This document shows positions 1-17,553 of a stretch of DNA of 64,000 nucleotides, one piece after another. Each line of letters begins with the position of its first letter. Within the stretch, counting starts at the first letter, position 1. This DNA is from Smithella sp. (lineage in GTDB: Bacteria > Desulfobacterota > Syntrophia > Syntrophales > Smithellaceae): NCBI GenBank assembly GCA_052139735.1, contig JBKQWB010000038.1, forward strand, positions 37,766 to 101,765. The letters run 5' to 3'. The notes beneath the pieces were generated by a model, which searched no databases, was not told the DNA's origin, and worked only from the letters and a program-made list of their open reading frames with translations. The position numbers and the translations under genes are program-made.

Positions 1-372
1 ATTGACAACGATCACGATGGGTATTTTACGCTTTTGAGCTTTGGCCAAAACCGTATCTTCGTATTTTGTCCAGATATCCGGTTCAACGACAAGAATGATA
101 ATGTCGGCGCGGTCGAAAATTTTAGCCGTTTTCTTGAGTCTTGCGCCGGAAAGTTCTGAAACATCATCAAGGCCTGCCGTGTCCAGAAATAGAACAGGCC
201 CGATCGGCAGTAACTCCATGGCCTTTTCCACAACATCGGTTGTTGTTCCGGCCACAGGGGAGGTAATGGCAATATCCTGGCCGAGCATTAAATTAAGCAG
301 ACTGGATTTGCCAACGTTGGTGCGTCCCATTAACGCGATGTGCAGCCGGTTTCCTTTAGGCGTATTATCCAT
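1..372 (-). CDS. hydF: [FeFe]-hydrogenase maturation GTPase HydF, N-terminal 124 aa (continues past the left edge)
   Basis: Hand translation of the reverse strand from the ATG at 372 gives MDNTPKGNRLHIALMGRTNVGKSSLLNLMLGQDIAITSPVAGTTTDVVEKAMELLPIGPVLFLDTAGLDDVSELSGARLKKTAKIFDRADIIILVVEPD...IPIVIVVN. The frame stays open to base 1. GTPase motifs G1 GRTNVGKSS, G2 GTTTD and G3 DTAG are present. It is absent from the ORF track because the ORF is open at the edge. Its ATG overlaps the stop of the upstream lyase gene. Confidence 0.8.
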   Translation of the reverse strand, partial: MDNTPKGNRLHIALMGRTNVGKSSLLNLMLGQDIAITSPVAGTTTDVVEKAMELLPIGPVLFLDTAGLDDVSELSGARLKKTAKIFDRADIIILVVEPDIWTKYEDTVLAKAQKRKIPIVIVVN

Positions 373-1747
373 TATTTTTGTAACCCAGTGCTGTTAATTG
401 ATAAGGGGATAAATATTTATCCACGATTTCTTTACCCAGTTTCTGTTCTAAAAAGAGCCGCATGTTTTTATCTGAGCACGTAGAAAATTCGGCGATCAGT
501 TGCGTTGCTCTTTCATAACCGATCGCGGGCAGAAGCGCTGTTATGATCATGGGGCTGTGGTCAAAATATTGCCCGCATTTTTTTTGATCGGCGGCGATGC
601 CTTTTACATATTTTACCAAAAGGTTGTCAATGTTAATCAGTAAATCCAGTGATTCCAAAAGCGCCTGCGCCAACAGCGGCAGAAATTCATTAATCTGAAG
701 CGTTCCACGGGCTGCGGTATCGGTGATGACACCGTCGTTGGCAATAACTTTCATGCCGACTTGAATGGCTGCTTCCGCTAAAACAGGATTTACTTTGCCG
801 GGCATGATGGATGAGCCTGCTTGAAGTTGCGGCAGACGAATTTCTCCCAGAAGATTCATCAGGCGCAGATCGCCCGCAATTTTTATCAGATTAACGGCGT
901 GGGCTTTGAGGATGCCGGAAACTTCGACATAAGTATCGGCGTTTGCCGTTTCTCCCATGATATTTTCTCCACGGGAAAGACCTAAACCCGTTACATCCCT
1001 CAATTTTTCAATAACGGAAAAAATATAGTTGCGCGGCGCGGTAAGGCCGGTGCCGACGGCTGTGCCGCCCAGATTAACCACGCGTAGACGTTCCTCGCAT
1101 TTGAATGTCCGCCAGCGGTCGCGTGAAAAAGCTTCGGCAAACGCCGAAAATTCCGCGCCCAATGTAATGGGAACCGCTTCCTGCCACTCTGTTCGTCCTA
1201 ATTTAACTATTTCGCCGAAGGCCTTTTCTTTTTCCTGAAACGCGCCTTGCAGATGGGCGATGCCTTGCGCGAGTTCACGCAAGGCAAGAGTTCCGGCAAT
1301 TTTAATAGCTGTGGGGAAAACATCATTGGTGGACTGATGCAGATTTACGTCTTCCAGTGGATGAACAATCGTGTAATCGCCTTTGTTGCCGCCTTGCAGT
1401 TCAATGGCGCGGTTGGCGATCACTTCATTGAGATTCATGTTGGTTGATGTTCCCGCGCCGCCTTGAAAAGCATCAACCGGAAATTGATCGGCAAGTTTGC
1501 CCGCAATAATTTCTTCGCAGGCGGCAGTTATGGCTTTTGCTTGATCCGTCGAAAGATAGCCGTTTTCGGCATTAGCCAGACAAGATGCTTTTTTGACCAT
1601 CGCCAGTCCCCGAATCAATCGGCTGTTGACTTTTATGCCGCTGATCTGGAAATTATGGATGGCTCTTTGTGTGTGAATACCCCAGTAGGCATCGCGCGGG
1701 ACTTCCATCTTGCCTAAGAAATCTTTTTCTATTCTTTGATCGGTCAT
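365..1747 (-). CDS. aspA: Aspartate ammonia-lyase family protein (class II fumarase/aspartase superfamily)
   Basis: 460 aa. It has the superfamily signature GSSIMPGKVNP and the AspA-like FPVDAFQGGAGTSTNMNLNEVIAN rather than the fumarase QTGSGTQ. The N-terminus RIEKDFLGKMEVPRDAYWGIHTQRAIHNF resembles AspA. Confidence 0.85.
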   Translation of the reverse strand: MTDQRIEKDFLGKMEVPRDAYWGIHTQRAIHNFQISGIKVNSRLIRGLAMVKKASCLANAENGYLSTDQAKAITAACEEIIAGKLADQFPVDAFQGGAGTSTNMNLNEVIANRAIELQGGNKGDYTIVHPLEDVNLHQSTNDVFPTAIKIAGTLALRELAQGIAHLQGAFQEKEKAFGEIVKLGRTEWQEAVPITLGAEFSAFAEAFSRDRWRTFKCEERLRVVNLGGTAVGTGLTAPRNYIFSVIEKLRDVTGLGLSRGENIMGETANADTYVEVSGILKAHAVNLIKIAGDLRLMNLLGEIRLPQLQAGSSIMPGKVNPVLAEAAIQVGMKVIANDGVITDTAARGTLQINEFLPLLAQALLESLDLLINIDNLLVKYVKGIAADQKKCGQYFDHSPMIITALLPAIGYERATQLIAEFSTCSDKNMRLFLEQKLGKEIVDKYLSPYQLTALGYKNNG

Positions 1748-1843: not shown

Positions 1844-3604
1844 TTATTCATCTTTTCCGTGAGGCAAATCCGTGCCTCTTTTCGTGTATTTGGTGTGCAG
1901 AAGCTTGTGCGACTTGTGTCCCAAAGGTTCCTTCAGGAAGTTGGCATACAGTTTCTTAACCGATTCATTTTCATGGGATTGACGGTTCTTCTGAACTTTT
2001 CCGTCATCTTTATAAAGAGCGGAGGAACGAAGTACTCTGATTTCGTTGTTAGTGGGGATGGGCTCGCCGCCGCCGGCGATGCAGCCGCCCGGACAGCACA
2101 TTACTTCAATGAAGGCGTAACCGCCTTTACCTTCGCGAATCAGATCCATCAGTTTGCGGGCATTTCCCAGACCATGAGCAACGGCAATCTTGACATCTCC
2201 AAGAGCGCCAACCTTGACAGTGGCTTCTTTGACGCCTTCCAGACCGCGAACAGGTGTGATATCCAGACTCGGCAGGTTTTCGCCGGTGACAACTGCGTAA
2301 ACCGTGCGCAGAGCGGCTTCCATAACGCCGCCGGTCGCGCCGAAAATGGTGGCTGCGCCGCTGTATTCACCCATCGGGGCGTCATAATCTTCATCCTGCA
2401 GATTGACAAAGTCAAGGCCGCCTTCATGAATCATACGGCCTAATTCTCTCGTTGTGAGAACATAATCAACATCTTGATAGCCGCTGCTGTTCATTTCGGG
2501 GCGCTGGGCTTCAAACTTTTTAGCGGTGCAGGGCATGATGGAAACCGAAACGATATCTTTCGGATCGACGCCCGCTGTTTCCGCGTAATAGGTTTTGGCC
2601 AGCGCGCCGAACATTTGCTGCGGCGATTTGCAGGTGGAAAGATGACCGAGCATATCGGGATAGAAATGTTCGCAGAACTTGATCCATCCGGGGCTGCACG
2701 AAGTAATCATCGGCAGTGTTCCCCCTTCTTTAACTCTTTTGAGTAATTCGTTGCCTTCTTCAATGATGGTGAGGTCGGCAGTAAAATTGGTGTCGAAAAC
2801 TTTATCAAAACCTAGACGGCGCAGCGCAGCGATCATCTTGCCTGTGACAAGGCTTCCCGGAGGCATGCCGAATTCTTCACCAAGAGCCGCGCGGATAGCC
2901 GGAGCTTCCTGCACGATGACATGTTTGGTCGGATCCTGCAGAGCTTTCCATACCAAATCAACGTCATCCTTTTCATATAAAGCGCCTACCGGGCAAACCA
3001 TGATGCACTGGCCGCAGGCGATGCAGTTGGATTCAATCAAAGGCAAATCAAAAGCAGGAACGACTTTTACTTTGCTGCCGCGATTAGCCGGTGTCAAAAC
3101 GCTGACAGTCTGAACTTCATCGCAGACGGTTACGCAGCGATGACATTCAATACATTTGCGGCTGTCCCGTACGATAGAAGGACTGGAATGGTCGATCATG
3201 CCTTCTTTCGGGAATTGTGTATAATCAAAACGAACTTCTTTAATGCCAACAAATTCGGCGACTTTCTGCAATTCGCAGCTGCCGTTTCTTACGCAGTAAT
3301 TGCACTCCTGCGGATGATTGGCCAACAGAAGTTCCACCACCATTTTTCTGGCTTTGCGTACTTTCTCCGTATTGGTGTGGACGACCATTCCCTCGGTTAC
3401 GGGAAAAACGCAGGCCGCGATCAGACTGCGCTGACCTACAACTTCCGTCATACACACACGGCAGGCGCCGGGAGTGTGATTTCTTTCCGTCCATGCACAA
3501 AGTGTGGGAATTACAATACCGGCACTGCGAGCGGCCTCCAGAACTGTGGAGCCGGCCTCTGCCGTCACTTTACGATTATCGATAGTCAAATTAACGGTTG
3601 ACAT
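1844..3604 (-). CDS. hndD: [FeFe]-hydrogenase catalytic subunit (HndD/HydA type, M3 architecture plus C-terminal small-subunit-like tail)
   Basis: 586 aa. The N-terminus has a 2Fe-2S site (CAW...GACRVC), a His-ligated cluster region (HPQECNYCVRNGSC) and two ferredoxin motifs (CIECHRCVTVC, CIACGQCIMVCP). H-cluster motifs are L2 MPCTAKKFE and L3 EVMCCPGGCIAGGGEP. L1 reads TSCSPGW, which is non-canonical (see findings). Confidence 0.92.
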   Translation of the reverse strand: MSTVNLTIDNRKVTAEAGSTVLEAARSAGIVIPTLCAWTERNHTPGACRVCMTEVVGQRSLIAACVFPVTEGMVVHTNTEKVRKARKMVVELLLANHPQECNYCVRNGSCELQKVAEFVGIKEVRFDYTQFPKEGMIDHSSPSIVRDSRKCIECHRCVTVCDEVQTVSVLTPANRGSKVKVVPAFDLPLIESNCIACGQCIMVCPVGALYEKDDVDLVWKALQDPTKHVIVQEAPAIRAALGEEFGMPPGSLVTGKMIAALRRLGFDKVFDTNFTADLTIIEEGNELLKRVKEGGTLPMITSCSPGWIKFCEHFYPDMLGHLSTCKSPQQMFGALAKTYYAETAGVDPKDIVSVSIMPCTAKKFEAQRPEMNSSGYQDVDYVLTTRELGRMIHEGGLDFVNLQDEDYDAPMGEYSGAATIFGATGGVMEAALRTVYAVVTGENLPSLDITPVRGLEGVKEATVKVGALGDVKIAVAHGLGNARKLMDLIREGKGGYAFIEVMCCPGGCIAGGGEPIPTNNEIRVLRSSALYKDDGKVQKNRQSHENESVKKLYANFLKEPLGHKSHKLLHTKYTKRGTDLPHGKDE

Positions 3605-3637: not shown

Positions 3638-6600
3638 TTAAATAGCCGCGTCGCAACGCAAACAACGACAGGCTTCTTTAATAGCATCTTCAGGTTTGAA
3701 GCCAAGTTCCACTTCTGCAAAGCTCATCTTGCGGGTGCCATGATGCATTTCCGGCATTGCCATCTGAGGTATTTCCTCCGTGTCTTCATCAATGACCAGA
3801 GGCACATCAATTTTCTCTTTCGCCGGGTTCTCGTAAGCAGGTTCGCCATTGGCTATGCGGATAGCTGCATCGATATCGTCGGCAGCCTGATGTCCGTAGC
3901 CGATAGCCGCGATGACAGTGTCAGGTCCTGTGACAGCATCGCCGCCCGCGAAATAACGGGAATTGGCTGTACGGGTTTTATATCCCTTACCGACATTGAA
4001 GCAATCCCACTTGTTGATTTCCACGCCGTTCTTTTTATCGATGAAGCTCATATCGGGAACCTGGCCGATGGCGGCAATGACCGCATCAACATTTAAAGTA
4101 AATTCTGAACCTTCTATGACAACAGGTTTCTTGCGTCCGCTGTTGTCAAAGTCGCCCAGTTTCATGCGATTGCAGGTAATGGAAGATACTTTTCCCTTTG
4201 CGCCGTCAATTTTCAACGGGGCAACCAGATAATCAATCTTGATTCCCTCGTCTTCAGCCGCTTTAATTTCCTCTTCGGCTGCCGGCATATCTTGTCTCAA
4301 ACGGCGATACAGAATGGTGACATCTGAACCGAGTCTTAATGCTACGCGAGCAGCGTCAATAGCCGAATTGCCACCGCCGATGACAGCCACTTTCTTGCCC
4401 AGGGTCTTTTCGCCTTTGAGCCATTTGTCTTCATTGTTGTTGAAGTCGCGCAGGAATTCAACGCCGCCGAAAACATTCTTCATATCTTCACCGGGCACGC
4501 CCATTTTCTGGCTCTTGTGCGCGCCTGTTGCCAAATAGATAAAGTCGAAATCTTTTTCCAGTTTGGCAAATGTAATATCCTTGCCCACGCGGGTGTTGAG
4601 GCGAATTTCCACGCCGAGAGCGCGGATATCATCAATTTCACTATCCAGAATGTTGCGAGGCAGACGATATGAGGGAATGCCCCAATAAAGCATTCCACCG
4701 GCTTTATTGAGTTCTTCAAAAACGGTTACTTTGTAACCGCGTAATGCCAGATCACGCGCGGCGGTAAGACCGGCAGGGCCTCCGCCCACAACAGCTATCT
4801 TTTCTTTGCGTGTGACAGGCACAACATCGATCTTCGGACGAGGCGCGTTATCTGTAATGAAACGCTTCAGGAACTTAATGGCAATGGGTTCATCCATGTT
4901 GCCGCGGCGGCATTTGCTCTGGCATTTGTGATCGCAGACTCTTCCGCAAACGGAGGGGAAGGGGTTGCTTTGCAGCAGTATTTTGTATGCGTCGTCAAAT
5001 CGTTCGGCCCGAATAAGCGCTATATAGGAAGGAATATCCATTTCGATCGGGCAGGTATGCTGACACGGTGATTTGAACATGGCCGAGCATACTGCTGCTA
5101 CGCATTTATGCTCGCGGATGTGCTGTTCATACTCTTTACGGAAATAACGGATGGTGCTTAAAATAGGATTTGGCGCTGTTTGTCCCAATCCGCAAAGGGC
5201 CGCATTTTTGATAATTTCGGCCATTTCTTCCAGAAGTTCAATATCGCCTTCCTTGCCTTTGCCCTGGGTGATATTGGTCAATATATCCAGCATGCGTTTC
5301 GTGCCCTCGCGGCAGGGTGTACATTTGCCGCAGGATTCATCCTGGCAGAAATCCATGAAGAATCTGGCCATATCGACGGCGCATTTGTCTTCATTCATTA
5401 CGATTAAACCGCCGGAGCCCATAATGGCGCCGAGTTCAACTACTTTTTCATAATCAACTGGAGCGTTTAAATGCTGAATGGGAATACAGCCGCCGGAGGG
5501 CCCGCCTAACTGTGCTGCTTTGAATTTCTTGCCTTTGGGAATACCGCCGCCGATATCATAAACGATGGTGCCCAGTTTTGTTCCCATGGGAACTTCCACA
5601 AGACCGACGTTGTTAACGTCACCGGTAAGCGCGAATACTTTTGTGCCTTTGCTCTTTTCCGTGCCGATGGATGCGTACCATTTTCCTCCGCGCAGAAGAA
5701 TCTGACCGATGTTAGCCAATGTTTCCACGTTATTCAGAATACTCGGTTTCTGCCACAGACCGGCAACAGCGGGGAAGGGCGGTCTTGGCCGGGGCATGCC
5801 TCTTTTCCCTTCAATGGAGGTCATCAGGGCCGTTTCTTCACCGCAGACAAAAGCGCCTGCGCCCTGGTAAATTTCCAGATCGAAATCAAAGCCCGTGCCC
5901 AGAATATCCTTACCCAGCAAACCGGCATTATGCGCTTGGTCTATGGCTACGTTTAAACGATGAATAGCCAACGGATACTCAGCGCGGCAATAAATGTAAC
6001 CTTGCTTGGAACCTATGGCTTTGGCGGCGATAACCATTCCTTCAAGAACGGCGTGTGGATCAGCTTCCAGAACGCTTCTGTCCATAAAGGCACCGGGATC
6101 TCCTTCATCAGCATTGCATAAAACGTATTTAATATCACTTTTGGACTGAGCGGCAAATTTCCATTTCAGGCCTGTAGGGAAGCCCGCTCCGCCGCGCCCT
6201 CTTAATCCTGAATCGAGGATTTCCTGAACGATTTGTTCCGGTTTCATTTCAGTCAGGGCTTTAGCCATGCCGGCATAGCCGTCACGCGCGATATATTCAT
6301 CAATTTTTTCGGGATCGATCAGACCACGATTCTTCAAAACTCTCAACTCCTGATGAGCGAAGAAGGGGATGTCCTGCATGGTCGGAATAATTTCATCTGT
6401 TGAGGGCTCATGATATAAGAGACGCTCTAAAGTTCTTCCCTTGATTAAATGTTCTTCAACCAGTTCCGGTATATCTTGCGGCTTCAAGCTGACGTAAATT
6501 ATACCTTCCGGATAAACGACCATGATCGGTCCCAGAGCGCAAAATCCGTTACATCCTGTTTCCACAACCTTTATTTCTTCAGTCAATCCTCTTTTGTCAA

Positions 6601-6694
6601 GCTCTTCCAATAAAGCTTTTTTTACTGCAGGTTGGCCGGAAGCCTGACAGCCGGTGCCTCCACAGATTAATAAATGCGAACGAAAAACTTTCAT
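3638..6694 (-). CDS. hndC: NuoF-like flavoprotein subunit of the hydrogenase (HndC/HydB) fused to a GltD/NfnB-like NADPH-dependent FAD oxidoreductase module
   Basis: 1018 aa. Domains in order:
- N-terminal thioredoxin-like 2Fe-2S domain (LLICGGTGCQASG...CNGFCALGP).
- NuoF FMN/NADH region (GLRGRGGAGFPTGLKWKF, NADEGDPGAFMDR).
- N3 cluster motif ESCGKCTPCREG.
- From about aa 530, a GltD-like part: CGRVCDHKCQSKC, the FAD fold VVGGGPAGLTAARDL, and the NADPH fold VIGGGNSAIDAARVALRLGSDVTILYRR.
- C-terminus ...EACRCLRCDAAI. Confidence 0.88.
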   Translation of the reverse strand: MKVFRSHLLICGGTGCQASGQPAVKKALLEELDKRGLTEEIKVVETGCNGFCALGPIMVVYPEGIIYVSLKPQDIPELVEEHLIKGRTLERLLYHEPSTDEIIPTMQDIPFFAHQELRVLKNRGLIDPEKIDEYIARDGYAGMAKALTEMKPEQIVQEILDSGLRGRGGAGFPTGLKWKFAAQSKSDIKYVLCNADEGDPGAFMDRSVLEADPHAVLEGMVIAAKAIGSKQGYIYCRAEYPLAIHRLNVAIDQAHNAGLLGKDILGTGFDFDLEIYQGAGAFVCGEETALMTSIEGKRGMPRPRPPFPAVAGLWQKPSILNNVETLANIGQILLRGGKWYASIGTEKSKGTKVFALTGDVNNVGLVEVPMGTKLGTIVYDIGGGIPKGKKFKAAQLGGPSGGCIPIQHLNAPVDYEKVVELGAIMGSGGLIVMNEDKCAVDMARFFMDFCQDESCGKCTPCREGTKRMLDILTNITQGKGKEGDIELLEEMAEIIKNAALCGLGQTAPNPILSTIRYFRKEYEQHIREHKCVAAVCSAMFKSPCQHTCPIEMDIPSYIALIRAERFDDAYKILLQSNPFPSVCGRVCDHKCQSKCRRGNMDEPIAIKFLKRFITDNAPRPKIDVVPVTRKEKIAVVGGGPAGLTAARDLALRGYKVTVFEELNKAGGMLYWGIPSYRLPRNILDSEIDDIRALGVEIRLNTRVGKDITFAKLEKDFDFIYLATGAHKSQKMGVPGEDMKNVFGGVEFLRDFNNNEDKWLKGEKTLGKKVAVIGGGNSAIDAARVALRLGSDVTILYRRLRQDMPAAEEEIKAAEDEGIKIDYLVAPLKIDGAKGKVSSITCNRMKLGDFDNSGRKKPVVIEGSEFTLNVDAVIAAIGQVPDMSFIDKKNGVEINKWDCFNVGKGYKTRTANSRYFAGGDAVTGPDTVIAAIGYGHQAADDIDAAIRIANGEPAYENPAKEKIDVPLVIDEDTEEIPQMAMPEMHHGTRKMSFAEVELGFKPEDAIKEACRCLRCDAAI

Positions 6695-6760: not shown

Positions 6761-7144
6761 TTATCTGGTTACTTCAGATCCTCTGGCCAGAACAAAAGGA
6801 GTCTGAATTTCTCCCTCCATGATGTGTCTTTTGAAAACCTGTCTCATTTTGTTGGAATTCATATATTCATATTTTATCGGTTCCTGATTCAGGACTTCAA
6901 CAGTAACAAGAGGTTCGCGGCTGCATAATCCCATGCAACCGGAAGTGGTTATGACAACATCATTTGCGCCGGCAGCTTCAATTTCCTGAAGCAATGTATC
7001 CATAACTTCTTTGGCTCCCGAAGCGATACCGCAGGTTCCCATGTGGACGGTAACTTTGACGCGACGCTCGCCATCCCGCAGGGACATTTCCTTGTGCACT
7101 TTATCCTTTATTTTTTTTAAATCATCTATTGTTAATTTCGCCAT
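6761..7144 (-). CDS. hndB: Small thioredoxin-like [2Fe-2S] ferredoxin subunit (HndB-like)
   Basis: 127 aa with HMGTCGIASGA...TSGCMGLCSREP, a four-Cys pattern typical of the 2Fe-2S thioredoxin-like fold. It lies between the NuoE-like and NuoF-like genes, as in hndABCD. Confidence 0.75.
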   Translation of the reverse strand: MAKLTIDDLKKIKDKVHKEMSLRDGERRVKVTVHMGTCGIASGAKEVMDTLLQEIEAAGANDVVITTSGCMGLCSREPLVTVEVLNQEPIKYEYMNSNKMRQVFKRHIMEGEIQTPFVLARGSEVTR

Positions 7145-7175: not shown

Positions 7176-7673
7176 TTATGTATATTGAGCTAATATCTCT
7201 TTTACCTTGCCCGGCTTGACACGGCCGTGCACGTCTTCATTCACAACAACTACCGGCCCCAAACCGCAGGCGCCTAAACAACGAACGCTTTCCAGAGTAA
7301 ACATTCTGTCGGGAGTGGTCTCGCCTTCCTTAATGCCGAATTCCTTCTCCATGGCTTCAGTGAGTGCTTTTCCGCCGCGCACATAGCAGGCAGTTCCCAG
7401 ACAAACGCGAACAGTATGCTTGCCTCGCGGTGTCATGGTAAAAAACGAGTAAAACGTGACAACACCGTAAACCCGGCTTAAAGGCAAATTCAAGTCTTTG
7501 GCAATCTTTTTCTGCGCTGATAGGGGCAGGTATTCCAGACACACCTGCGCTTCTTCCAGTACGGGAATTAAACTTCCCGGTTTGCCTTTGTGTTTGCTGA
7601 TAATCTTGTTTAGTTTATCAACTTGTGCTGATGTAAATTCTTTTAAAAGTTCAGTATCTTCTGCCTTCATCAA
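7176..7673 (-). CDS. hndA: NuoE-like [2Fe-2S] subunit of the hydrogenase (HndA/HydC)
   Basis: 165 aa with VRVCLGTACYVRGG...VRCLGACGLGPVVVVN, the NuoE/24 kDa-type cluster motif. Confidence 0.87.
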   Translation of the reverse strand: MMKAEDTELLKEFTSAQVDKLNKIISKHKGKPGSLIPVLEEAQVCLEYLPLSAQKKIAKDLNLPLSRVYGVVTFYSFFTMTPRGKHTVRVCLGTACYVRGGKALTEAMEKEFGIKEGETTPDRMFTLESVRCLGACGLGPVVVVNEDVHGRVKPGKVKEILAQYT

Positions 7674-7701: not shown

Positions 7702-8250
7702 TTATGCCCGGGGTTTAATTTCGCTTAAACCTTCGTCAATGACGCCACGAATATATTTTAATATTTCAAAATGATTTATCGGTAAATCATCGATTTCTTT
7801 GCGGATTTCACGCGTGTCCACTGAGAACCGTTGGTCATTATGCCTATGTTTGTAAATAAAGTCAACAAAAGAATTTCCGGCAATAAGATTGATAATAGTT
7901 GCTGAAATATCACCCATAGGCTGCCTGTCCAGATGGTCGAGTTGAAAAGTTGCCTTAAGCCTTGTTCCCTTACCTTTTTCTGATTTCAAATCAAGATTGC
8001 CGCCGGCCATTTGAGCGGCATTGGTCAGAAGAGGAATTCCCAATCCGAATCGTCTCACTTTTTTTGTTGTGTAAAAAGGGTCAAAGGCTCTTTTGATTTC
8101 CTCTTTGGTCATTCCGCAGCCGTCGTCATTTATTTCTATGGAGAGCAAATTATTAGCCGAATCTTCATTTATATTTATTTCGACTGTTTTAGCTCCTGCA
8201 CGAACAGAGTTTTCAGCAATATCCAGAATATGTTCGGCAAGCTCCAGCAT
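7702..8250 (-). CDS. Stand-alone GHKL/histidine-kinase-like ATPase domain protein
   Basis: 182 aa. N-box EHILDIAENSVRAGA, G1 NDDGCGM, G2 RRFGLGIPLL. No DHp or sensor domain is visible. Confidence 0.7.
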   Translation of the reverse strand: MLELAEHILDIAENSVRAGAKTVEININEDSANNLLSIEINDDGCGMTKEEIKRAFDPFYTTKKVRRFGLGIPLLTNAAQMAGGNLDLKSEKGKGTRLKATFQLDHLDRQPMGDISATIINLIAGNSFVDFIYKHRHNDQRFSVDTREIRKEIDDLPINHFEILKYIRGVIDEGLSEIKPRA

Positions 8251-8252
8251 TT

Positions 8253-8990
8253 CTACTCCAATACACGACGACCGTTTTGCCCGGTGAAAGCCATTTTTAA
8301 TTCCGCCAGAGTTGGTTTTTCAAGCATAATCTTTGTCAGTGCCGTTCCAATGTCTTTTAAGTAATGGGCATCGGAGGAAGTTATAAATGAATAATTATTC
8401 AACTCCCTGTATTTAATTCGTGCCTGTTGAAGACCTGTTAAGGACGATATTTCCAACGCGTCAAAATGAATGCTTTCGTCAATAAAGCCGAGTTGGCTCA
8501 ATACACTGAAACTTTCTCTGTCTATATGAGAGGCAACTGCTAATCCGTTTTGCTCATGTACGTGGTTCAATAAATCATTTAATGGAATATCAGTGGCTCC
8601 GATTAATAATTTATCGTTTATTCCCTCGACCTCGCCATTTTCATTTACAATGGCCTGAACGCCGAAACGGTCTTCATCATTTTTTCCCGGCAGATGCTGA
8701 TAAACAATTTCCTGCAGCCTGGCTAAATCCGGCAAAGAATCGAATAGAGCTAAAAAATGCACTTCTTCACTTGTTGTTATTTCCATTCCGGGAAATATCT
8801 TTAAATTTTTTCCCCGGGCGGCATTGATGACGTAAGAAACATTTTCAGAAGAGTTGTGATCGCAAATGGCAAGAATATCGAGACCGGCGGCGATGGCTCT
8901 TTCTACCAGAGCTTTGGGATGCATATCCAATTCGGCGCAAGGTGAGAGACAAGTGTGAATGTGAAAATCACAATTAAAAACTTTAAGCAT
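8253..8990 (-). CDS. PHP-domain (polymerase/histidinol phosphatase-like) metal-dependent phosphoesterase
   Basis: 245 aa. It has the N-terminal CDFHIHTCLSPCA motif, then ILAICDHNS and SSDAHYL, which are typical PHP metal ligands. Confidence 0.75.
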   Translation of the reverse strand: MLKVFNCDFHIHTCLSPCAELDMHPKALVERAIAAGLDILAICDHNSSENVSYVINAARGKNLKIFPGMEITTSEEVHFLALFDSLPDLARLQEIVYQHLPGKNDEDRFGVQAIVNENGEVEGINDKLLIGATDIPLNDLLNHVHEQNGLAVASHIDRESFSVLSQLGFIDESIHFDALEISSLTGLQQARIKYRELNNYSFITSSDAHYLKDIGTALTKIMLEKPTLAELKMAFTGQNGRRVLE

Positions 8991-9053
8991 CGTCTTTTGG
9001 GGGAATTAAACAGACATGGCCAAAAGTCTGCGGCAGTTATAAAAACATTTCTG

Positions 9054-9398
9054 TTATTTTTCCGTTCTCAACAAGTTATAAATTCTACCTGTTAATTCGA
9101 ATGCGGACAAATTTGAAATCAGTATGGGGACATTCTCCTGAATGGCCTTTTCCAGAGTGTCTTTAGCCGGTTCGCAAGAATTAACCAGAATAACAGCCGC
9201 GTGCTCTTTCAAGGTGGCTATGGCAACGATATTTTGGTGCACCTGTCGTGTTATCCAGATATCTCCTTCGTGAGAATTTGCCATTACATCGCTTAAGAGA
9301 TCTCCCGTATAACCTCCTTTAACATTATTATTCTTAATTCTGTCTAATGCAGATACTACTTTTAAATTTAATTCTTTTGCTATGGTTGCGATGTCCAT
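9054..9398 (-). CDS. DRTGG-domain protein (short, divergent copy)
   Basis: 114 aa. Core YTGDLLSDVMAN...AAVILVNSCEP...ENVPILIS aligns with the two other DRTGG-like ORFs in this locus. Confidence 0.6.
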   Translation of the reverse strand: MDIATIAKELNLKVVSALDRIKNNNVKGGYTGDLLSDVMANSHEGDIWITRQVHQNIVAIATLKEHAAVILVNSCEPAKDTLEKAIQENVPILISNLSAFELTGRIYNLLRTEK

Positions 9399-9408
9399 TA
9401 TATATCCT

Positions 9409-9876
9409 TTATATATCCTTTGTTAATTGAGTAGCGTTAATGATCATTCTTAAAGAAGTTCCTTTGTTCACTTCCGATGAGATATCGAATTTGTCAGAGT
9501 AGAAATTGATATTGTGAAGTCCCATGCCGGCGCCGAACCCCATTTCTCTTATTTGCTGACTGGCAGTAGAATAACCTTGTTCCATTGCCTGTTCAATATT
9601 GGGTATTCCGGGCCCTTCATCAGCTGCTTCAATCTCGACATTTTCCGGGGTGACTGTAAGATTGATAAATCCTTTTCTGGCGTAAGAAACGATATTGATT
9701 TCGGCTTCATAAGACACAATGGCGGACTTTCGAACAACATCGCTCGGCAGTCCTTTTTCTTTTAGGATAGCTTTTATGCGCATAGAAACTGTCCCAGCGA
9801 CATTAAAATTACCGCCCTCAATATTAAAGCTATACTTATTAAAAGTGTTTTCAGGTTTGTTCACTACCGGTATCAA
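9409..9876 (-). CDS. Anti-sigma-factor-type Ser/Thr kinase-like ATPase (SpoIIAB/RsbW-like HATPase)
   Basis: 155 aa with YEAEINIVSYA (N-box-like), DEGPGIP (G1) and GFGAGMGLHNI (G2). It overlaps the upstream DRTGG gene by 26 nt. Confidence 0.65.
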   Translation of the reverse strand: MIPVVNKPENTFNKYSFNIEGGNFNVAGTVSMRIKAILKEKGLPSDVVRKSAIVSYEAEINIVSYARKGFINLTVTPENVEIEAADEGPGIPNIEQAMEQGYSTASQQIREMGFGAGMGLHNINFYSDKFDISSEVNKGTSLRMIINATQLTKDI

Positions 9877-10225
9877 CTTTTTCCAGACAGCCGACTATGC
9901 CTTTTGCGTAAAGACGGCCCGCCGTTTCGAATAAAATGTATTTTGTCGTTAAAATGGGAATTTGAAGACTCTTAGCCATAGATATGGTTTCTGCAGGCGG
10001 TTTTTTACCGCGAACTAAAATTATCGCGGCCATATCGAGAACATTGGCGATTCTCACAACCTGCGTATTAGTCAAGCCGGTCAACAAAAGACAGCCCGCC
10101 TTCGCAAAGGAAAGGACATCGCTCATTAAGTCTGCTCCAAAAGCGGTTGTGACTTCAATATCTAGTTTTTCATCACCAACAATAACGTCGGCATCTAATA
10201 TTTCTTTAACTTCTCTTAGTTTCAA
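9851..10225 (-). CDS. DRTGG-domain protein, paralog A
   Basis: 124 aa, TTG start behind GAGGAA. Motifs FGADLMSDVL, LLLTGLTN and AAIILVRGKKP...IPILTT. About three quarters of residues match the ORF at 10485-10862. Confidence 0.6.
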   Translation of the reverse strand: MKLREVKEILDADVIVGDEKLDIEVTTAFGADLMSDVLSFAKAGCLLLTGLTNTQVVRIANVLDMAAIILVRGKKPPAETISMAKSLQIPILTTKYILFETAGRLYAKGIVGCLEKVDTGSEQT

Positions 10226-10484
10226 TACCCATTCCTCATACAGAAAAAATCCGGCGATTTCTTTTTAAAATATAGAAAACATTTTATTTTCCACTATCAT
10301 ATATTAAACTTTATTGTCAATGAAATCATTTTGGTAACTGGATTATACATTCAGTAAATGAATCGCCGTATTGTCCGCGTTCGATGAATTTTAAATCCAA
10401 CTTACTGAAGATGTTTTAGCGGCATTAGCAAAAAATATAATTTCCCAATTAATCCTCTTTAGTTCATCAAAAGAGTTCCGATAT

Positions 10485-10862
10485 TTATTTGTTGTGAAAA
10501 CTGTCACTGTCGACTTTTTTCAGGCAACCAACAATACCTTTACTATAAAGGATACCGGCTGTTTCAAATAAAATATATCGCGTAGTTAAAATCGGAATTT
10601 GAAGTTCTTTAGCCATGTCGATAGCTTCAGTAGAGGGTTCTTTTCCTCTAACGATGATAATAGCGGCAATATGCTTGGCCGCAGCCGTTTTAATGACCTG
10701 AGCATTTGTTAAGCCGGTCAATAAAAGACTTCCCGCTTTGGCAAAAGCCATTACATCGCTCATCAAATCAGCTCCAAAAGCCGTAGAAACCTCAATATCT
10801 AATTGCCCCTTGCCGACGATTAAATCAGCATCCAATACTTCTTTAACTTCTCTTAGCTTCAA
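10485..10862 (-). CDS. DRTGG-domain protein, paralog B
   Basis: 125 aa, TTG start behind GGAG. It is colinear with paralog A over its full length (MKLREVKE[IV]LDAD...ILFETAG.LY.KGIVGCL.KVD). Confidence 0.6.
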   Translation of the reverse strand: MKLREVKEVLDADLIVGKGQLDIEVSTAFGADLMSDVMAFAKAGSLLLTGLTNAQVIKTAAAKHIAAIIIVRGKEPSTEAIDMAKELQIPILTTRYILFETAGILYSKGIVGCLKKVDSDSFHNK

Positions 10863-11147: not shown

Positions 11148-11224
11148 CGGGGCGTGGCGCAGTCTGGTAGCGTATCTGAATGGGGTTCAGAGGGCCGGTG
11201 GTTCAAATCCACTCGCCCCGACCA
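11148..11224 (+). tRNA. tRNA-Pro (anticodon GGG)
   Basis: Hand-folded cloverleaf, 77 nt. Acceptor cggggcg/cgccccg, anticodon stem tctga/tcaga, loop atGGGgt, T-loop ttcaaat, encoded CCA. Confidence 0.9.
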
Positions 11225-11476
11225 GTAAAATCAAGGGGTTAGCCAATAGTTTGGTTACCCCTTTATCTTTAACTACATTTTTTTCAATCTTTTAAGTCCA
11301 TAAAGAAATTATATTTTACCAGGTTAATCTATTTTCGATTAGCGTTTATGGCAGGCATAATATTCATGAAGACATTTTTCTTGCATAAAAGCGGATAATC
11401 AAATACATAAAATCCCCTAAAGCTTCAAAAAGCTTAATCTGACTGGTTTTGTTAGTAATTTCAAAAATAATCCGCG

Positions 11477-11506
11477 TTGACATTCTTATGCGTAATGAAT
11501 TATAAA
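11477..11506 (+). promoter_or_regulatory. Sigma70-type promoter for tRNA-Leu (and possibly tig)
   Basis: TTGACA at 11477-11482, a 17-18 nt spacer, then TTATAA/TATAAA at 11500-11506, about 10 nt before the tRNA. Confidence 0.55.
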
Positions 11507-11515
11507 AGTCCAGGA

Positions 11516-11602
11516 GCGAGAGTGGCGGAATTGGCAGACGCACTGGACTTAGGATCCAGCCCGCTATGCGGAATAGGGGTTCAAGTCCCCTCTCTCGCAC
11601 CA
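11516..11602 (+). tRNA. tRNA-Leu (anticodon TAG)
   Basis: 87 nt class II tRNA. Acceptor gcgagag/ctctcgc, anticodon stem ctgga/tccag, loop ctTAGga, long variable arm cccgctatgcggaat, T arm agggg-ttcaagt-cccct, encoded CCA. Confidence 0.9.
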
Positions 11603-11652
11603 GTCTTAAAGAAGAGTTTTGTAAATATTTCAATGAAAAAGGAGATATTATC

Positions 11653-12975
11653 GTGAGTCAGGTTCAGATCAAGATGGAAGAATTGAGTCCAGTTAAGAAA
11701 AAATTATCATTTGAAATACCCTGGAGTGAGGTTAAAAATGAACTGGATGCTGTATATCATGAGGTTAATAAGAAAGCTAAAATTAAAGGTTTTCGTCCGG
11801 GCAAAATTCCACGCAAGATTTTAGAAACTTATTATAAGGATCATGCCCAGGAAGAAGCGACAACCAATATTGTGAACAAATATTACTGGCAAGCGTTGGA
11901 AGACAAGGGAATTGTTGCTGTTTCGCGACCCGAAATAAGTCAGGAAGGAATAAAAGAAAATACAGATTTTTCTTTTTCTGCTTCGTTCGAAATGGAACCG
12001 GAGTTTGAACCTAAAGGTTATAAAGGAATCGAATTAGAAAAAGAAGAACTTAAAGTAACCGATAATGATGTTAAAAAAAGAATTAACGAAATAAGAGAAA
12101 TGTTTGCGACGATGGAGGAGGTCAAAGATGATCGACCCGTTGTCAATGCTGATTTTGTTGTGATTGATTTTGCAGGGAGTTTAAACGGAGAATTATACAA
12201 AGAATTAAAAACGGAAGACTATTTACTGGAAATCGGATCACAGAGATTTGTTCCGGGTTTTGAGGAACAATTGATTGGTATGAAAAACGGGGAAATAAAG
12301 GAAATTAAAGTAACTTTCCCTGCTGACTATCACGAAAATAAATTTGCCGGCAAAGAGATAATTTTCAATGTAACATTGAAAGGCATAAAGGAGAAGAAAT
12401 TACCTGAAACGGATGATAACTTTATCAAAAATTTCGACAGGTACAATTCTTTGGAAGATTTAAAAAACGATGTGCGTAAAACTTTGGAAGAAAAATTTCA
12501 CCGCCAGGCGGAAATTAATCTGCAAAACAGAATTACAGAAATATTGATAAAAGAAAATGATTTTGAAGTTCCCTCTTCGCTTGTTGAAAGGCAGATTTAT
12601 TATATGATGACTGATACTCAAAAAAGAATGGTTTCTGCCGGTATGGATGAAAAAAATGCTCTGGAATTAAGCTTTAAGATGCATGATAAATTCAAAGATG
12701 ACGCGGCTAAAATCGTCAAATCTTTTTTACTTTTAAAAAAAATAGCCCAAAAAGAGTCATTTGTCGTTGAAGAAAACGATGTAGATAAATATATTCAGGA
12801 ATTAGCTGTTCAGAATGGCCAGGATTACGAATTATTAAAGAAAATGTACGATAGTGAAGAACGTAAAGACAGTCTTAAAATGGAGTTGATTCAAAAAAAG
12901 ACATTTGACTTTATAGAGCACAATGCCAATATTAAGACCGTAGAAAACAATGGTATGAATGCGGAGGTTAAATAG
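11653..12975 (+). CDS. tig: Trigger factor
   Basis: I chose the GTG start at 11653 behind AAAGGAGA. The ORF-track start at 11566 lies inside tRNA-Leu. The product has an N-terminal ribosome-binding region ([13 protein letters not shown]) and an FKBP PPIase region ([18 protein letters not shown]). Confidence 0.9.
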
Positions 12976-13589
12976 TGACTTTGATTCCCATGGTGGTTGA
13001 GCAAGACGGGCGAGGCGAACGGGCGTACGATATTTATTCACGTTTGTTGAAAGATCGCATAGTTTTTCTGGGTACAGCGATTGATGATAATGTGGCCAAT
13101 TTAATTGTTGCTCAAATGCTGTATCTGGAAGCTGACAACCCGGATAAGGAGATCTTTTTTTATTTAAATTCTCCCGGAGGGAGTGTGAGTGCCGGGATGG
13201 CCATTTATGATACAATGCAGTACATTAAATCACCGATTTCGACTGTTTGCATGGGACAATCAGCCAGCATGGCCGCGTTACTTTTAGCAGCAGGAGAAAA
13301 GAAAAAAAGATTTGCCCTGCCTCACTCGAGAATTTTAATCCATCAACCGTTGGGAGGGTTTCAGGGACAGGCGACGGACATTGACATTCAGGCAAGAGAA
13401 ATATTAAGATTAAAGGATGAGTTAAACAAAATACTGGCTGATTTAACAGGACAGCCGCTTCCCAAGATTATTAATGACACGGAACGCGATTATTATATGA
13501 CTGGTGAACAAGCTAAAGAATATGGTTTGATCGATGAAATCATAGTTCGCAAGCCGACTTCTTCAGGTAACACAAAAAAGGAGATTTAA
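12975..13589 (+). CDS. clpP: ATP-dependent Clp protease proteolytic subunit
   Basis: 204 aa with [19 protein letters not shown] and the catalytic Ser context [14 protein letters not shown], plus RILIHQP. Confidence 0.95.
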
Positions 13590-14852
13590 GTGATAAAAAA
13601 AGGCAAAAATAATAGAATGGATGATGGAATGCTTTTTTGTTCTTTTTGCGGAAAAATGCAAAGTGAAGTGCGAAAACTGGTTGCCGGTCCGACAGCCTAT
13701 ATTTGCGATGAATGCATTGAACTTTGCCGGTATATTGTTGAGGAAGAAGAAGATAAACTTGTAGAAAAAGATTCCCCGAAGGGTTTGCCCTATCCGAAAG
13801 AAATTAAAAAATTTTTAGACCAGTATGTAATTGGTCAGGAAAAAACAAAGAAAATATTGTCGGTTGCCGTTTATAATCATTATAAAAGATTATTTTCTCA
13901 TATTGAGGCCGATGGGATAGAAATTCAAAAAAGCAATGTGCTTTTAATCGGTCCCACAGGTTCGGGTAAAACATTGCTGGCTAAAACTCTGGCAAAATTT
14001 CTTAATGTTCCTTTCACAATCGCTGATGCTACAACTTTGACTGAAGCCGGATATGTTGGGGAAGATGTAGAAAATATTATTTTAAGCTTGCTGCAAAATG
14101 CCGATTATGATGTTGCCAGAGCGTCAAAAGGAATTGTTTACATTGATGAGATAGACAAGATTGCGAAAAAATCGGGAAATCCTTCCATAACCAGAGATGT
14201 TTCCGGTGAAGGAGTCCAACAGGCCTTGTTGAAGATTATGGAAGGAACAATGGCCAATATACCCCCCAAAGGCGGCCGTAAACATCCTCAACAAGAGTTT
14301 ATTCAGGTAGATACAACAAATATATTATTTATTTGCGGCGGCGCTTTTAATGATCTGGAAAACATCATTTCCAAACGATTGGGAGTTAATGCGATGGGTT
14401 TCGGCGCCGAAATAAAAAGTAAGAAAGAAAAAAGGGTTGGTGAATTGCTGGCCGAAGTACGATCGGAAGATTTATTGAAAGTCGGATTAATACCTGAATT
14501 TATCGGACGATTGCCGGTTATTGCCACGCTCGATGAGTTGGATGAATCGGCATTAATCAAAATTCTGGTTGAGCCGAAAGACGCTATTATAAAACAATAT
14601 AAAAAATTGTTTGCTTTGGAAAATGTATCCCTGAAATTTACAGACGGGGCCCTGAGAGCTGTAGCCGGTTTATCAACGGAAAGAAAATCCGGCGCCCGCG
14701 GTTTGCGATCAATTCTGGAAAACACAATGTTAGAAGTTATGTATGATATTCCTTCACAAAATAATATTAAGGAATGTGTTATTAGTGAAGAAGTCGTATT
14801 AAAAAAAGAAAAACCAATTTTGATTTACGAAACTAAATCTGAATCTGCTTAA
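13590..14852 (+). CDS. clpX: ATP-dependent Clp protease ATP-binding subunit ClpX
   Basis: 420 aa. Zinc-binding CSFCGK...CDEC, Walker A GPTGSGKT, Walker [12 protein letters not shown] start behind AAGGAG. Confidence 0.95.
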
Positions 14853-14872
14853 AGGAATAAACAAGGAAAAAT

Positions 14873-17278
14873 ATGTTTAATGAAAATAAAGACAATGATC
14901 AGGATAAAACAATAACGATTCCTCTCCTGCCGCTGAGAGATGTTGTTATGTTTCCACATATGATTGTGCCTCTGTTTGTCGGGCGCGAAAAATCTATTGC
15001 CGCGCTGGAATCAGCGATGAAATACGAAAAAAGTATTTTCATGGTTGCCCAGAAGAATGCCAAAGATGATGACCCCAAACAGGAAGATATTTATCATATC
15101 GGCACAATCGGCATAATCATTCAACTTTTGCGTTTGCCTGATGGGACAGTCAAGGTGCTTGTCGAAGGGAAAACTCGCGGCGTCATAAAAGAATATTTAC
15201 CCAACAATGATTTTTTCCTGGTTAAAGTAAATGAGATTGAGGATATTGATGATAAAAATGACGTGAAAAAGCAAGCTCTGATACGAAGCATTAAAGAATC
15301 TTTTGAGCTTTATCTGAAACTCAGTAAAAAAATCCATGTTGAAATGCTGGGGACAATTGCCGCTATTGAAGATGGCTCAAAGCTGGCCGATGTCGTTATT
15401 ACTCACCTTAATGTGAAACTTGAAGATAAGCAGAAAATTATAGAGGTGTTTGACATCGGCGAACGACTGGAAGCAATTTATTCTCTGATGCTTTCAGAAA
15501 TCGAAATCCTGCAGGTTGAAGAAAAGATCAAGAGACGCGTTAAAAAGCAGATGGAAAAGACGCAAAAAGATTATTATCTCAACGAACAAATGCGGGCCAT
15601 TCAGAAGGAAATGGGAGACAAAGATGATTTCCGCAACGAGATAAACGATTTAGAAAAACGTTTGAAGCAAAAGAAAATGTCGGAAGAGGCAGTGAAAAAG
15701 GTCCGGCAGGAAATTAAAAAATTACAAATGATGACCCCCATGTCCGCAGAAGCTACGGTAGTCAGAAATTATATTGACTGGATACTGGACATGCCGTGGT
15801 CGGAAAAAACAGAAAATAAAAACACACTGAAGGAATCCGAGGCGATTCTGGATGAAGATCATTTTGGATTGAAAAATGTAAAAGAACGCATTATCGAGTA
15901 CCTTGCCGTACAATCTCTGGTTAAGAAAAATAAAGGTTCGATTTTGTGTCTTGTTGGTCCTCCGGGCGTAGGAAAGACTTCTATCGCTAAATCGGTTGCC
16001 AGGGCTACAAATAGGAAATTTGTTCGTATCTCTCTGGGAGGTGTTCATGATGAAGCGGAAATTCGAGGCCATCGTAGAACTTATATCGGAGCTATGCCCG
16101 GGAAGATTATTCAGTTGTTAAAAAAAGCCGGTTCCAACAATCCTGTTTTTTGTCTGGATGAAGTAGATAAGGTCAGCTCTGATTTTAGAGGAGATCCTTC
16201 ATCCGCTCTGCTGGAAGTTCTGGATCCGGAACAGAACTTTGCGTTTAATGATAATTATCTTGATGTTGATTATGATTTGTCGGAAATCATGTTTATTACG
16301 ACGGCAAATATTTTGCAGACAATACCGGCTCCGTTGCAGGACAGAATGGAAGTAATCAGGATTGCCGGATACACGGAACCGGAGAAACTGCAAATAGCGA
16401 AAAAATTTCTAATCACCAAGCAGGTAGAAGCTAATGGTCTGAAAATTGAAAATATCGAATTCACTAATGGAGCGTTGCTGAAAATTATCCGTCAATACAC
16501 ACGGGAAGCCGGCGTGCGCAATCTTGATCGGGAGATTGCCTCCATTTGCCGGAAAGTGGCCAAAGAAATAGTGAGCAATGATAATAAAAAAAGAGTGTTT
16601 ATCAGTTCAACATCCATATCCAAGTATTTGGGCGTGCCCAAATATCATCATGGCGAAATGGAAGAAAAAAGCAAGATTGGCCTGACAGTCGGATTGGCCT
16701 GGACAGAAGTCGGCGGAGAACTTTTATCAATTGAAGCCTCAATTATGGAAGGTACCGGCAAGATGATAATGACAGGTAAATTAGGCGATGTGATGCAGGA
16801 ATCGGTTCAGGCTGCACTGAGTTATATTCGCGCCCGCGCCGAACAATTCGGGCTGGCAAAGAATTTTTATAAAAAAATTGATATTCATGTGCATGTTCCG
16901 GAAGGAGCAATTCCCAAGGATGGCCCCTCTGCAGGCATTGCCATGACTACTTCCATAGCGTCAGTTCTCATGCAGAAAAAAGTGCGTGCGGATATCGCTA
17001 TGACCGGTGAAATTACATTAAGAGGTAGAATTTTGCCGATTGGCGGACTCAAGGAAAAAATCCTTGCGGCTCACAGGGGTAATATTAAAACAGTGATCAT
17101 TCCGAAAGATAATGAAAGGGACCTGGCGGAAGTTCCCAAAAATGTGCAGAATGCGCTGAAAATTATTTTTGTCGAGCATATTGATGAAGTTATGAAAATT
17201 GCATTTGTTCAGGATGAAGAGGATATTAGGCCACCAAGTCCGGCAGATGTTCCCATAAGTTCCCAATCAGTGAATTAA
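14873..17278 (+). CDS. lon: Lon protease
   Basis: 801 aa. Walker [10 protein letters not shown], Walker B FCLDEVDK, and the protease active-site context [14 protein letters not shown]. Confidence 0.95.
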
Positions 17279-17355
17279 AAGGTTTTAAGAGCTTTTATGA
17301 CTTGACAAGCAATATCAATGTTGCTAGAAGCCTCACAGCGTTTTTGGTGTATTAC

Positions 17356-17431
17356 GGGCGGGTAGCTCAGCTGGGAGAGCGCCACGCTTACACCGTGGAT
17401 GTCACAGGTTCGATCCCTGTTCCGCCTACCA
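17356..17431 (+). tRNA. tRNA-Val (anticodon TAC)
   Basis: 76 nt. D arm gctc-agctggga-gagc, anticodon stem ccacg/cgtgg, loop ctTACac, T arm acagg-ttcgatc-cctgt, encoded CCA. A possible TTGACA lies at 17302-17307 upstream. Confidence 0.9.
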
Positions 17432-17476
17432 ATTATGCTGAATTGAAAAAGTGACATAAAATTAAAATGATTTTTT

Positions 17477-17553
17477 GGGGTCGTAGTTAAGTTGGTTATA
17501 ACGCCGGCCTGTCACGCCGGAGGGCGTGGGTTCAAGTCCCATCGGCCCCGCCA
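17477..17553 (+). tRNA. tRNA-Asp (anticodon GTC)
   Basis: 77 nt. Acceptor ggggtcg/cggcccc, anticodon stem ccggc/gccgg, loop ctGTCac, T arm gtggg-ttcaagt-cccat, encoded CCA. Confidence 0.9.

Follow-up and report, generated by a model that had tools for sequence, protein, structure and literature searches.

The [FeFe]-hydrogenase catalytic subunit HydA encoded in the window, as we call the whole 64-kb stretch of DNA analysed, carries a serine, Ser304, at the L1 position that is occupied by a cysteine ligand of the [4Fe-4S]H cubane in the Clostridium pasteurianum enzyme CpI. The alignment of this residue with the ligand position and its conservation are established at the level of sequence. Very probably the protein is the HydA of an NAD(P)H-linked [FeFe]-hydrogenase of HydABC type from a Smithella-like syntroph, in which, by analogy with the Acetobacterium woodii enzyme, the lineage-fixed Ser304 would act as the fourth cubane ligand of an ordinary, active group-A enzyme. 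A serine at this position is not new; it is a documented natural variant that about one HydA-like sequence in five carries. Among close relatives TSCSPGW occurs in all 120 homologous protein clusters (83-93% identity) and in 80 of 80 orthologous loci (64-98% identity) from a scan with one genome per species, the sources being mostly MAGs of Smithella, Smithellaceae, Syntrophales and Desulfomonilia.

Catalytic subunit and H-cluster motifs

The gene and its motifs lie on the reverse strand:

1844..3604, minus strand: hydA, 586-aa M3-type [FeFe]-hydrogenase catalytic subunit (Pfam, NCBIfam, PDB 7q4v_A)
2684..2704, minus strand: L1 (P1) H-cluster motif, variant TSCSPGW, residues T301-W307 (gapless alignment to CpI TSCCPGW and A. 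woodii TSCSPGW)
2693..2695, minus strand: AGC codon of Ser304, where CpI and T. kivui HydA1 have the [4Fe-4S]H ligand cysteine (direct read, alignment, numbering)
2696..2698, minus strand: TGC codon of Cys303, the conserved proton-relay cysteine equivalent to CpI C299 (direct read, numbering)
2510..2536, minus strand: L2 motif MPCTAKKFE, residues 357-365, with ligand Cys359 (CpI C355) and Lys362 (CpI K358)
2060..2107, minus strand: L3 motif EVMCCPGGCIAGGGEP, residues 500-515, with Met502, an extra Cys503, ligand Cys504 and bridging Cys508

Read directly, the reverse strand of 2704-2684 is ACT TCG TGC AGC CCC GGA TGG and translates as TSCSPGW, which confirms the motif and the AGC serine codon at 2693-2695 given in the original prediction. 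The claim made there that L2 and L3 are intact holds as well (residues 357-365 and 500-515; the L2 coordinates follow from an ORF that starts at 3604). Both follow their consensus patterns, MPCxxKxxE and ExMxCxxGCxxGGGxP, and the three remaining cysteine ligands are present. In L3, Cys503, Cys504 and Cys508 stand opposite CpI A498, C499 and C503.

According to Pfam, HydA begins with a 2Fe-2S domain, a NuoG-like His-ligated 4Fe-4S domain and 2x[4Fe-4S] domains, and continues with the H-domain (Fe_hyd_lg_C, PF02906, 3.5e-101) followed by a small-subunit-like tail (Fe_hyd_SSU, PF02256, 5.5e-21), the combination by which group A HydA is recognized. The protein also scores above the cutoffs of NCBIfam NF040763 ('NADH-dependent [FeFe] hydrogenase, group A6'; 903 bits, cutoff 765) and TIGR02512 (550 bits, cutoff 406). 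The canonical TSCCPxW, with which four cysteines ligate [4Fe-4S]H, is absent from the window HydA, Ser304 standing at CpI C300. This variant does not exclude group A membership, and the motif is better defined as TSC[CS]PxW, because the same deviation is seen in members with established biochemical activity, A. woodii HydA1 among them, and in 22% of the aligned representatives.

Residue numbering was rebuilt from HMMER alignments to solved structures, in which the region is free of gaps. The relay cysteine and the ligand position correspond as follows:

CpI: relay C299, ligand position C300
T. kivui HydA1: relay C298, ligand position C299
A. woodii HydA1: relay C300, ligand position S301
Window protein: relay C303, ligand position S304

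The gapless match to CpI bears out the earlier assignment of the first cysteine as relay and the second position as ligand. The other cluster ligands, C359, C504 and C508, align opposite CpI C355, C499 and C503. The proton pathway is kept throughout (C303, E283, S323, E286 and R290, equivalent to CpI C299, E279, S319, E282 and R286), as are the second-sphere and active-site residues K362, M357, M502, A234, P235, P328, Q329 and F421. The sole second-sphere exception is Ala236 in place of CpI Ser232, and alanine is also found there in the HydA1 proteins of A. woodii and T. kivui. With Ser304 aligned by HMMER to A. woodii Ser301 and the adjacent relay cysteine retained, the protein has the two sequence traits of the Ser-ligated subtype (A. 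woodii HydA1 type). Sensory [FeFe]-hydrogenases (groups C and D, HydS-like) have lost the proton-relay cysteine, and their polypeptide includes a signalling domain such as PAS. The window HydA shows neither trait: the relay Cys303 is kept, and Pfam detected no PAS or other signalling or sensory domain on the polypeptide.

Operon and the fused HydB

The genes around hydA are encoded on the same strand:

7176..7673, minus strand: hydC, 165-aa NuoE-like [2Fe-2S] subunit (Pfam 2Fe-2S_thioredx, 3.7e-52)
6761..7144, minus strand: small 127-aa protein between hydC and hydB, with a weak resemblance to thioredoxin-like [2Fe-2S] ferredoxins that stays below threshold
3638..6694, minus strand: hydB, 1018 aa (Pfam Complex1_51K, NADH_4Fe-4S, Fer4_20, Pyr_redox_2)
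365..1747, minus strand: class-II lyase, aspartate ammonia-lyase-like, directly downstream of hydA (Pfam Lyase_1, 4.9e-81)

The neighbourhood is that of a Bfu-type HydABC, with a NuoF-like HydB (FMN/NAD(H) site) and a NuoE-like HydC beside hydA. All NCBIfam NuoE/HoxE matches of HydC fall below their cutoffs (e.g. NuoE NF005722, 139.1 versus 141 bits). The 127-aa protein, whose position is conserved across related loci, likewise stays below cutoff against both Pfam 2Fe-2S_thioredx (19.7 bits, cutoff 24.8, E = 8e-4) and the NCBIfam 2Fe-2S ferredoxin model (36.2, cutoff 150). A search of the 64-kb window located no second hydrogenase; a canonical TSCCPAW enzyme is encoded nearby in 8 related loci.

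HydB itself is a fusion of a Bfu/NuoF-like flavoprotein (residues 1-542) with an NfnB/GltD/StnC-like FAD/NAD(P)H module (541-1015). Residues 1-542 align to 7q4v_B and 7t2r_B, and further PDB alignments were obtained with 8oh5_C, 9n5u_A and 4ylf_B. The alignment with A. woodii HydB (599 aa) ends at query residue 540, and that protein has no counterpart of the fused module, which matches GltD, NfnB and StnC modules (Fer4_20 and Pyr_redox_2). In the Stn/Nfn-Bfu transhydrogenases (StnABC, 8OH5; NfnABC, 9N5U) the NADPH module of StnC and NfnA, to which HydB 541-1015 aligns, is part of the HydA-like subunit, whereas in the window it is carried by HydB and has a true hydrogenase as partner. The HydA-like subunit of the Stn type is not known to carry an H-cluster. 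Pfam and the PDB alignments revealed no C-terminal bacterial-ferredoxin-like 2x[4Fe-4S] domain on the window HydB; excerpts of Katsyv et al. 2023 (PMC10021017) place ferredoxin reduction at the HydB C-terminus (clusters B3/B4). The translation does contain a GGPSG motif ('AAQLGGPSGGCIP'), which Losey 2020 associated with bifurcating HydB.

The class-II lyase is probably linked to H-cluster maturation. In relatives a homologous lyase ORF follows hydA, and after it come HydF, HydG and HydE, recognized by N-terminal sequence and length only; the part that ammonia-lyases play is treated in PMC11736057.

The original prediction had proposed tabulating L1 in orthologues that share the fused HydB/HndC partner. 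A fused NuoF-GltD HydB lies upstream in about 58 of the 80 Ser-type loci, and about 20 gave no tblastn match to HydB or HydC. Six of the latter were inspected, and the five full-length ones are standalone hydA genes beside maturase-like and lyase-like ORFs. A link between the serine and the fused partner is rejected: all 80 loci read TSCSPGW with or without the fusion, and A. woodii combines the serine with an unfused HydB.

Serine enzymes and the proposed ligation of the cubane

The best PDB match of the window protein, over its full length and with E = 1e-194, is HydA1 of the electron-bifurcating HydABC(D) of A. woodii (7Q4V, 7Q4W, 8A5E). Both proteins share the M3 architecture, an identical L1 segment LPMITSCSPGWIKF with serine at the cubane-ligand position, a near-identical L2 (MPCTAKK[FY]E), the conserved proton pathway, and NuoF-like HydB and NuoE-like HydC partners. 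In excerpts of Katsyv et al. 2023 (PMC10021017) the A1-cluster ligand cysteine of the T. kivui enzyme, Cys299, is described as replaced by Ser301 in A. woodii HydABC. The same excerpts report a purified protein with a solved structure, a cryo-EM model with Ser301 and not the adjacent cysteine at the ligand position, and FTIR signatures and activities that match those of the all-Cys T. kivui enzyme. The A. woodii enzyme is a fast bidirectional hydrogenase. One of the readings offered in the original prediction, that a serine could ligate the cluster, thereby has an experimental precedent in an enzyme with the identical motif. The effect anticipated from such ligation did not show in A. woodii, and the excerpts give no redox potential, so that the shift in potential suggested in the original prediction is at most a possibility.

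The other structural relatives are of the all-cysteine type. HydA1 of Thermoanaerobacter kivui (8A6T) and CpI (4XDC) share with the window protein the fold, the F-domain clusters, L2, L3, the proton pathway and most second-sphere residues, but have TSCCPxW, with Cys299 and Cys300, respectively, corresponding to Ser304. TSCSPGW was reported earlier by Di Rienzi et al. 2013 (PMC3787301), from genome sequence, in the trimeric 'confurcating' hydrogenases of Melainabacteria ACD20. These have a HydABC-like trimeric context as in the window, where, in distinction to them, the L3 of HydA is intact; the authors separated two TSCSPGW enzymes from one with 'all the necessary residues'. The share of hydrogenase sequences with serine at the L1 ligand position was put at about 20% by Kertess et al. 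2017 (PMC5855289), with reference to an earlier alignment. A search of the review PMC8924675 for the motif found no discussion of the variant there. Given the reports of Di Rienzi 2013, Kertess 2017 and Katsyv 2023, the novelty implied by the original prediction finds no support.

Kertess et al. 2017 also made substitutions at every cubane cysteine of C. reinhardtii HydA1 (PMC5855289). The C115S variant makes the same exchange at the L1 cubane ligand, C115 being expressed-protein numbering that we map to native C170 and CpI C300 by an inferred constant offset of 55. Its [4Fe-4S] site was poorly occupied, [2Fe] was not inserted and activity was absent, and in the Ser, Ala and Asp variants at C115 alike most of the cubane was missing and no activity was left (PMC5855289). 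The algal C115S protein is inactive, with most of its [4Fe-4S] cluster lost and no [2Fe] taken up, whereas the natural A. woodii enzyme is fully active, so serine ligation needs a suitable protein context.

On the preferred reading the [4Fe-4S]H cubane would be held by the oxygen of Ser304 and the thiolates of Cys359, Cys504 and the bridging Cys508, and Cys303 would go on relaying protons to the bridgehead amine as usual. The enzyme would be normally active and bidirectional, neither crippled nor sensory. The serine oxygen on the cubane iron and the normal activity are both suggested by the analogy with A. woodii HydA1, and the transfer of the Fe-O(Ser) bond relies on the cryo-EM model of a homologue recognized by phmmer at E = 1e-194. 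Unlike A. woodii HydA1, which has an alanine before the L3 ligand cysteine (ELMACPGGC) and GGGQP, the window lineage has the extra Cys503 and GGGEP, and therefore the A. woodii result transfers inexactly; the hosts differ as well, an acetogenic Firmicute there and a syntrophic Smithella (Syntrophales) here.

A more unusual reading, which we regard as very unlikely, is that Ser304 together with the clade-enriched Cys503 (MCCPGGC) forms a distinct first-sphere arrangement in Smithella and other Syntrophales, in which ligation might switch between O and S or the potential of [4Fe-4S]H might be tuned. Either property could favour the evolution of H2 by the enzyme under the very small driving force on which syntrophs live. 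Such an arrangement might also explain why natural serine enzymes work and the engineered C-to-S algal enzyme does not.

The residue that binds iron is indistinguishable by sequence alone, and the original prediction had also considered that the single cysteine might be recruited as ligand. Cys303 would then bind the cubane, with the relay lost or taken over by Ser304, in a slow or sensor-like hydrogenase. Several observations make this very unlikely. The A. woodii model has serine at the ligand position in a fast enzyme with normal activity and FTIR states, E283, S323, E286 and R290 are all conserved alongside the relay cysteine, so that the relay appears to be in use, and the gene belongs to a HydABC operon and encodes a protein without a sensory domain detectable by Pfam.

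The extra L3 cysteine could instead supply the missing thiolate itself, Cys503 (CpI Ala498) being the fourth ligand and Ser304 remaining unbound. Of the 120 close homologues 117 have Cys503, as do 58 of the 80 loci, and a cysteine in column 498 occurs in 4 of 22 Ser-type versus 2 of 100 Cys-type representatives (Fisher p ~0.01, kinship ignored). However, alanine takes its place in A. woodii HydA1 and in 17 of the 80 loci, a few other loci have threonine or serine here, and all keep the L1 serine; therefore Cys503 is not required for the serine form. Among the established H-cluster contacts (CpI numbering), Met497 is turned towards the [2Fe] site and Cys499 towards the cubane. Since both flanking residues face inward, residue 498 should point away from the cluster, and we regard ligation by Cys503 as very unlikely.

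Distribution and significance of the serine

Serine is encoded in the 80 loci by AGC (44), AGT (12), TCG (11), TCT (8), TCA (3) and TCC (2), i.e. by 56 AGY and 24 TCN codons. The use of both codon families indicates long-term selection for serine and rules out a recurrent base-calling artefact. The best orthologue, from a Smithella MAG, is 98% identical and has the same 21-nt sequence. AGC is one base away from TGC, and a sequencing or assembly error hiding a canonical TSCCPGW had been considered; with serine in 200 of 200 orthologues (the 120 clusters and the 80 independently assembled genomes, that MAG included), with 24 loci whose TCN codons the same error cannot produce from TGC, and with the A. 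woodii serine protein purified and its structure solved, this reading is refuted and such an error practically inconceivable.

Beyond the immediate relatives, the family was surveyed with the best 150 representatives of 50%-identity clusters plus references. Of the 153 aligned sequences, 116 have cysteine and 34 serine (22%) in the ligand column, which agrees with the roughly 20% published by Kertess et al. 2017. When 118 representatives from 50% clustering were placed on a crude neighbour-joining tree, the serine state was scattered: it takes 17 parsimony changes to explain, where shuffled labels need 19.6 on average. The tree does not recover a single 'Ser clade', and the scatter may reflect either frequent Cys/Ser switching or poor deep resolution. 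A glycine at CpI position 302 accompanies 86% of Ser-type and 38% of Cys-type sequences, a weak and phylogenetically confounded enrichment. As co-varying compensators, neither this glycine nor the cysteine at position 498 is convincing, both enrichments being weak and confounded by phylogeny.

As a discovery the feature has limited weight, being a documented H-cluster motif variant in an otherwise standard hydrogenase, and it is a common natural alternative rather than a peculiarity of this genome. It does have a practical consequence for annotation, as motif screens that demand TSCCPxW would mistake about one in five catalytic [FeFe]-hydrogenases for a defective enzyme. It also highlights a puzzle, namely that natural Ser-ligated enzymes are fully active and the same substitution in the algal enzyme destroys cluster binding. 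In this respect the large, Ser-invariant Smithella/Syntrophales clade, in which some members have Cys503 and others lack it, lends itself to a comparative search for the compensating context.

The L3 motif and a second hydrogenase in relatives

The third H-cluster motif of HydA, read from its translation, carries an additional cysteine immediately before the ligand Cys504.

2060-2107, minus strand: L3 motif EVMCCPGGCIAGGGEP
2096-2098, minus strand: codon of Cys503

At this column the Clostridium pasteurianum enzyme CpI has Ala498 and the A. woodii protein likewise an alanine, whereas the window HydA has cysteine. The motif also ends in GGGEP instead of the usual GGGQP. Many members of the Smithella clade have cysteine at the 503 column, and Ser-type sequences are enriched in it, although it is not universal.

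In eight related genomes (loci L002, L008, L018, L022, L026, L049, L057 and L070), a canonical TSCCPAW [FeFe]-hydrogenase gene lies no more than about 5 kb from the Ser-type gene, and therefore both ligand types are kept in one organism. Seven of these eight second hydrogenases have EVMNCP[GA]GC in L3. No second L1 motif was found in the 64-kb window.

Genes flanking the hyd operon

Directly downstream of hydA, the window encodes a class-II lyase.

365-1747, minus strand: class-II lyase, aspartate ammonia-lyase-like (Pfam Lyase_1, 4.9e-81)

In two relatives with a standalone hydA (L035 and L036), a homologous lyase ORF is followed by putative hydF, hydG and hydE ORFs, assigned from N-terminal sequence and length only. 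A JBC 2024 paper (PMC11736057) reports that ammonia-lyases take part in making the dithiomethylamine bridge; the placement of the lyase by hydA and the putative maturase ORFs would fit the role described there.

Upstream of hydC, several small genes with putative regulatory roles, identified by domain matches, are clustered at 7702-10862 on the minus strand.

7702-8250, minus strand: HATPase_c protein
8253-8990, minus strand: PHP protein
9054-9398, minus strand: DRTGG, weak sub-threshold match
9409-9876, minus strand: HATPase_c_2 protein, anti-sigma-F-like
9851-10225, minus strand: DRTGG protein, paralogue 1
10485-10862, minus strand: DRTGG protein, paralogue 2

HATPase and PHP genes also adjoin the hyd operon in many related loci. 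Farther along, the plus strand carries a block of housekeeping genes and four tRNA genes at 11148-17553. Ahead of a release factor 2 gene, recognized by its domains, stands the sequence 'GGGGA ctgt CTT TGA C', the classical site of programmed +1 frameshifting.

11148-11224, plus strand: tRNA Pro-GGG
11516-11602, plus strand: tRNA Leu-TAG
11566-17278, plus strand: tig-clpP-clpX-lon
17356-17431, plus strand: tRNA Val-TAC
17477-17553, plus strand: tRNA Asp-GTC
21020-21060, plus strand: region of the frameshift site
21050-22090, plus strand: release factor 2 ORF (PCRF and RF-1 domains)

The trigger factor ORF as called from 11566 overlaps tRNA-Leu, so the gene probably starts downstream of that position.

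The HydB fusion

Pfam and PDB alignments divide HydB into two parts.

3638-6694, minus strand: HydB, 1018 aa

Residues 1-542 form a Bfu/NuoF-like core, which can be aligned with both A. woodii HydB (7q4v_B) and subunit B of NiFe-HydABCSL (7t2r_B). Whereas the usual HydB ends in a 2x[4Fe-4S] ferredoxin domain, here residues 541-1015, fused to the core, make up an FAD/NAD(P)H module that is NfnB/GltD/StnC-like, has two [4Fe-4S] sites and aligns to StnC (8oh5_C), NfnA (9n5u_A) and NfnB (4ylf_B). Of the 80 related loci, about 58 conserve this fusion upstream of hydA. The fusion suggests a second nucleotide site, perhaps for NADPH, and possibly a different bifurcation partner.
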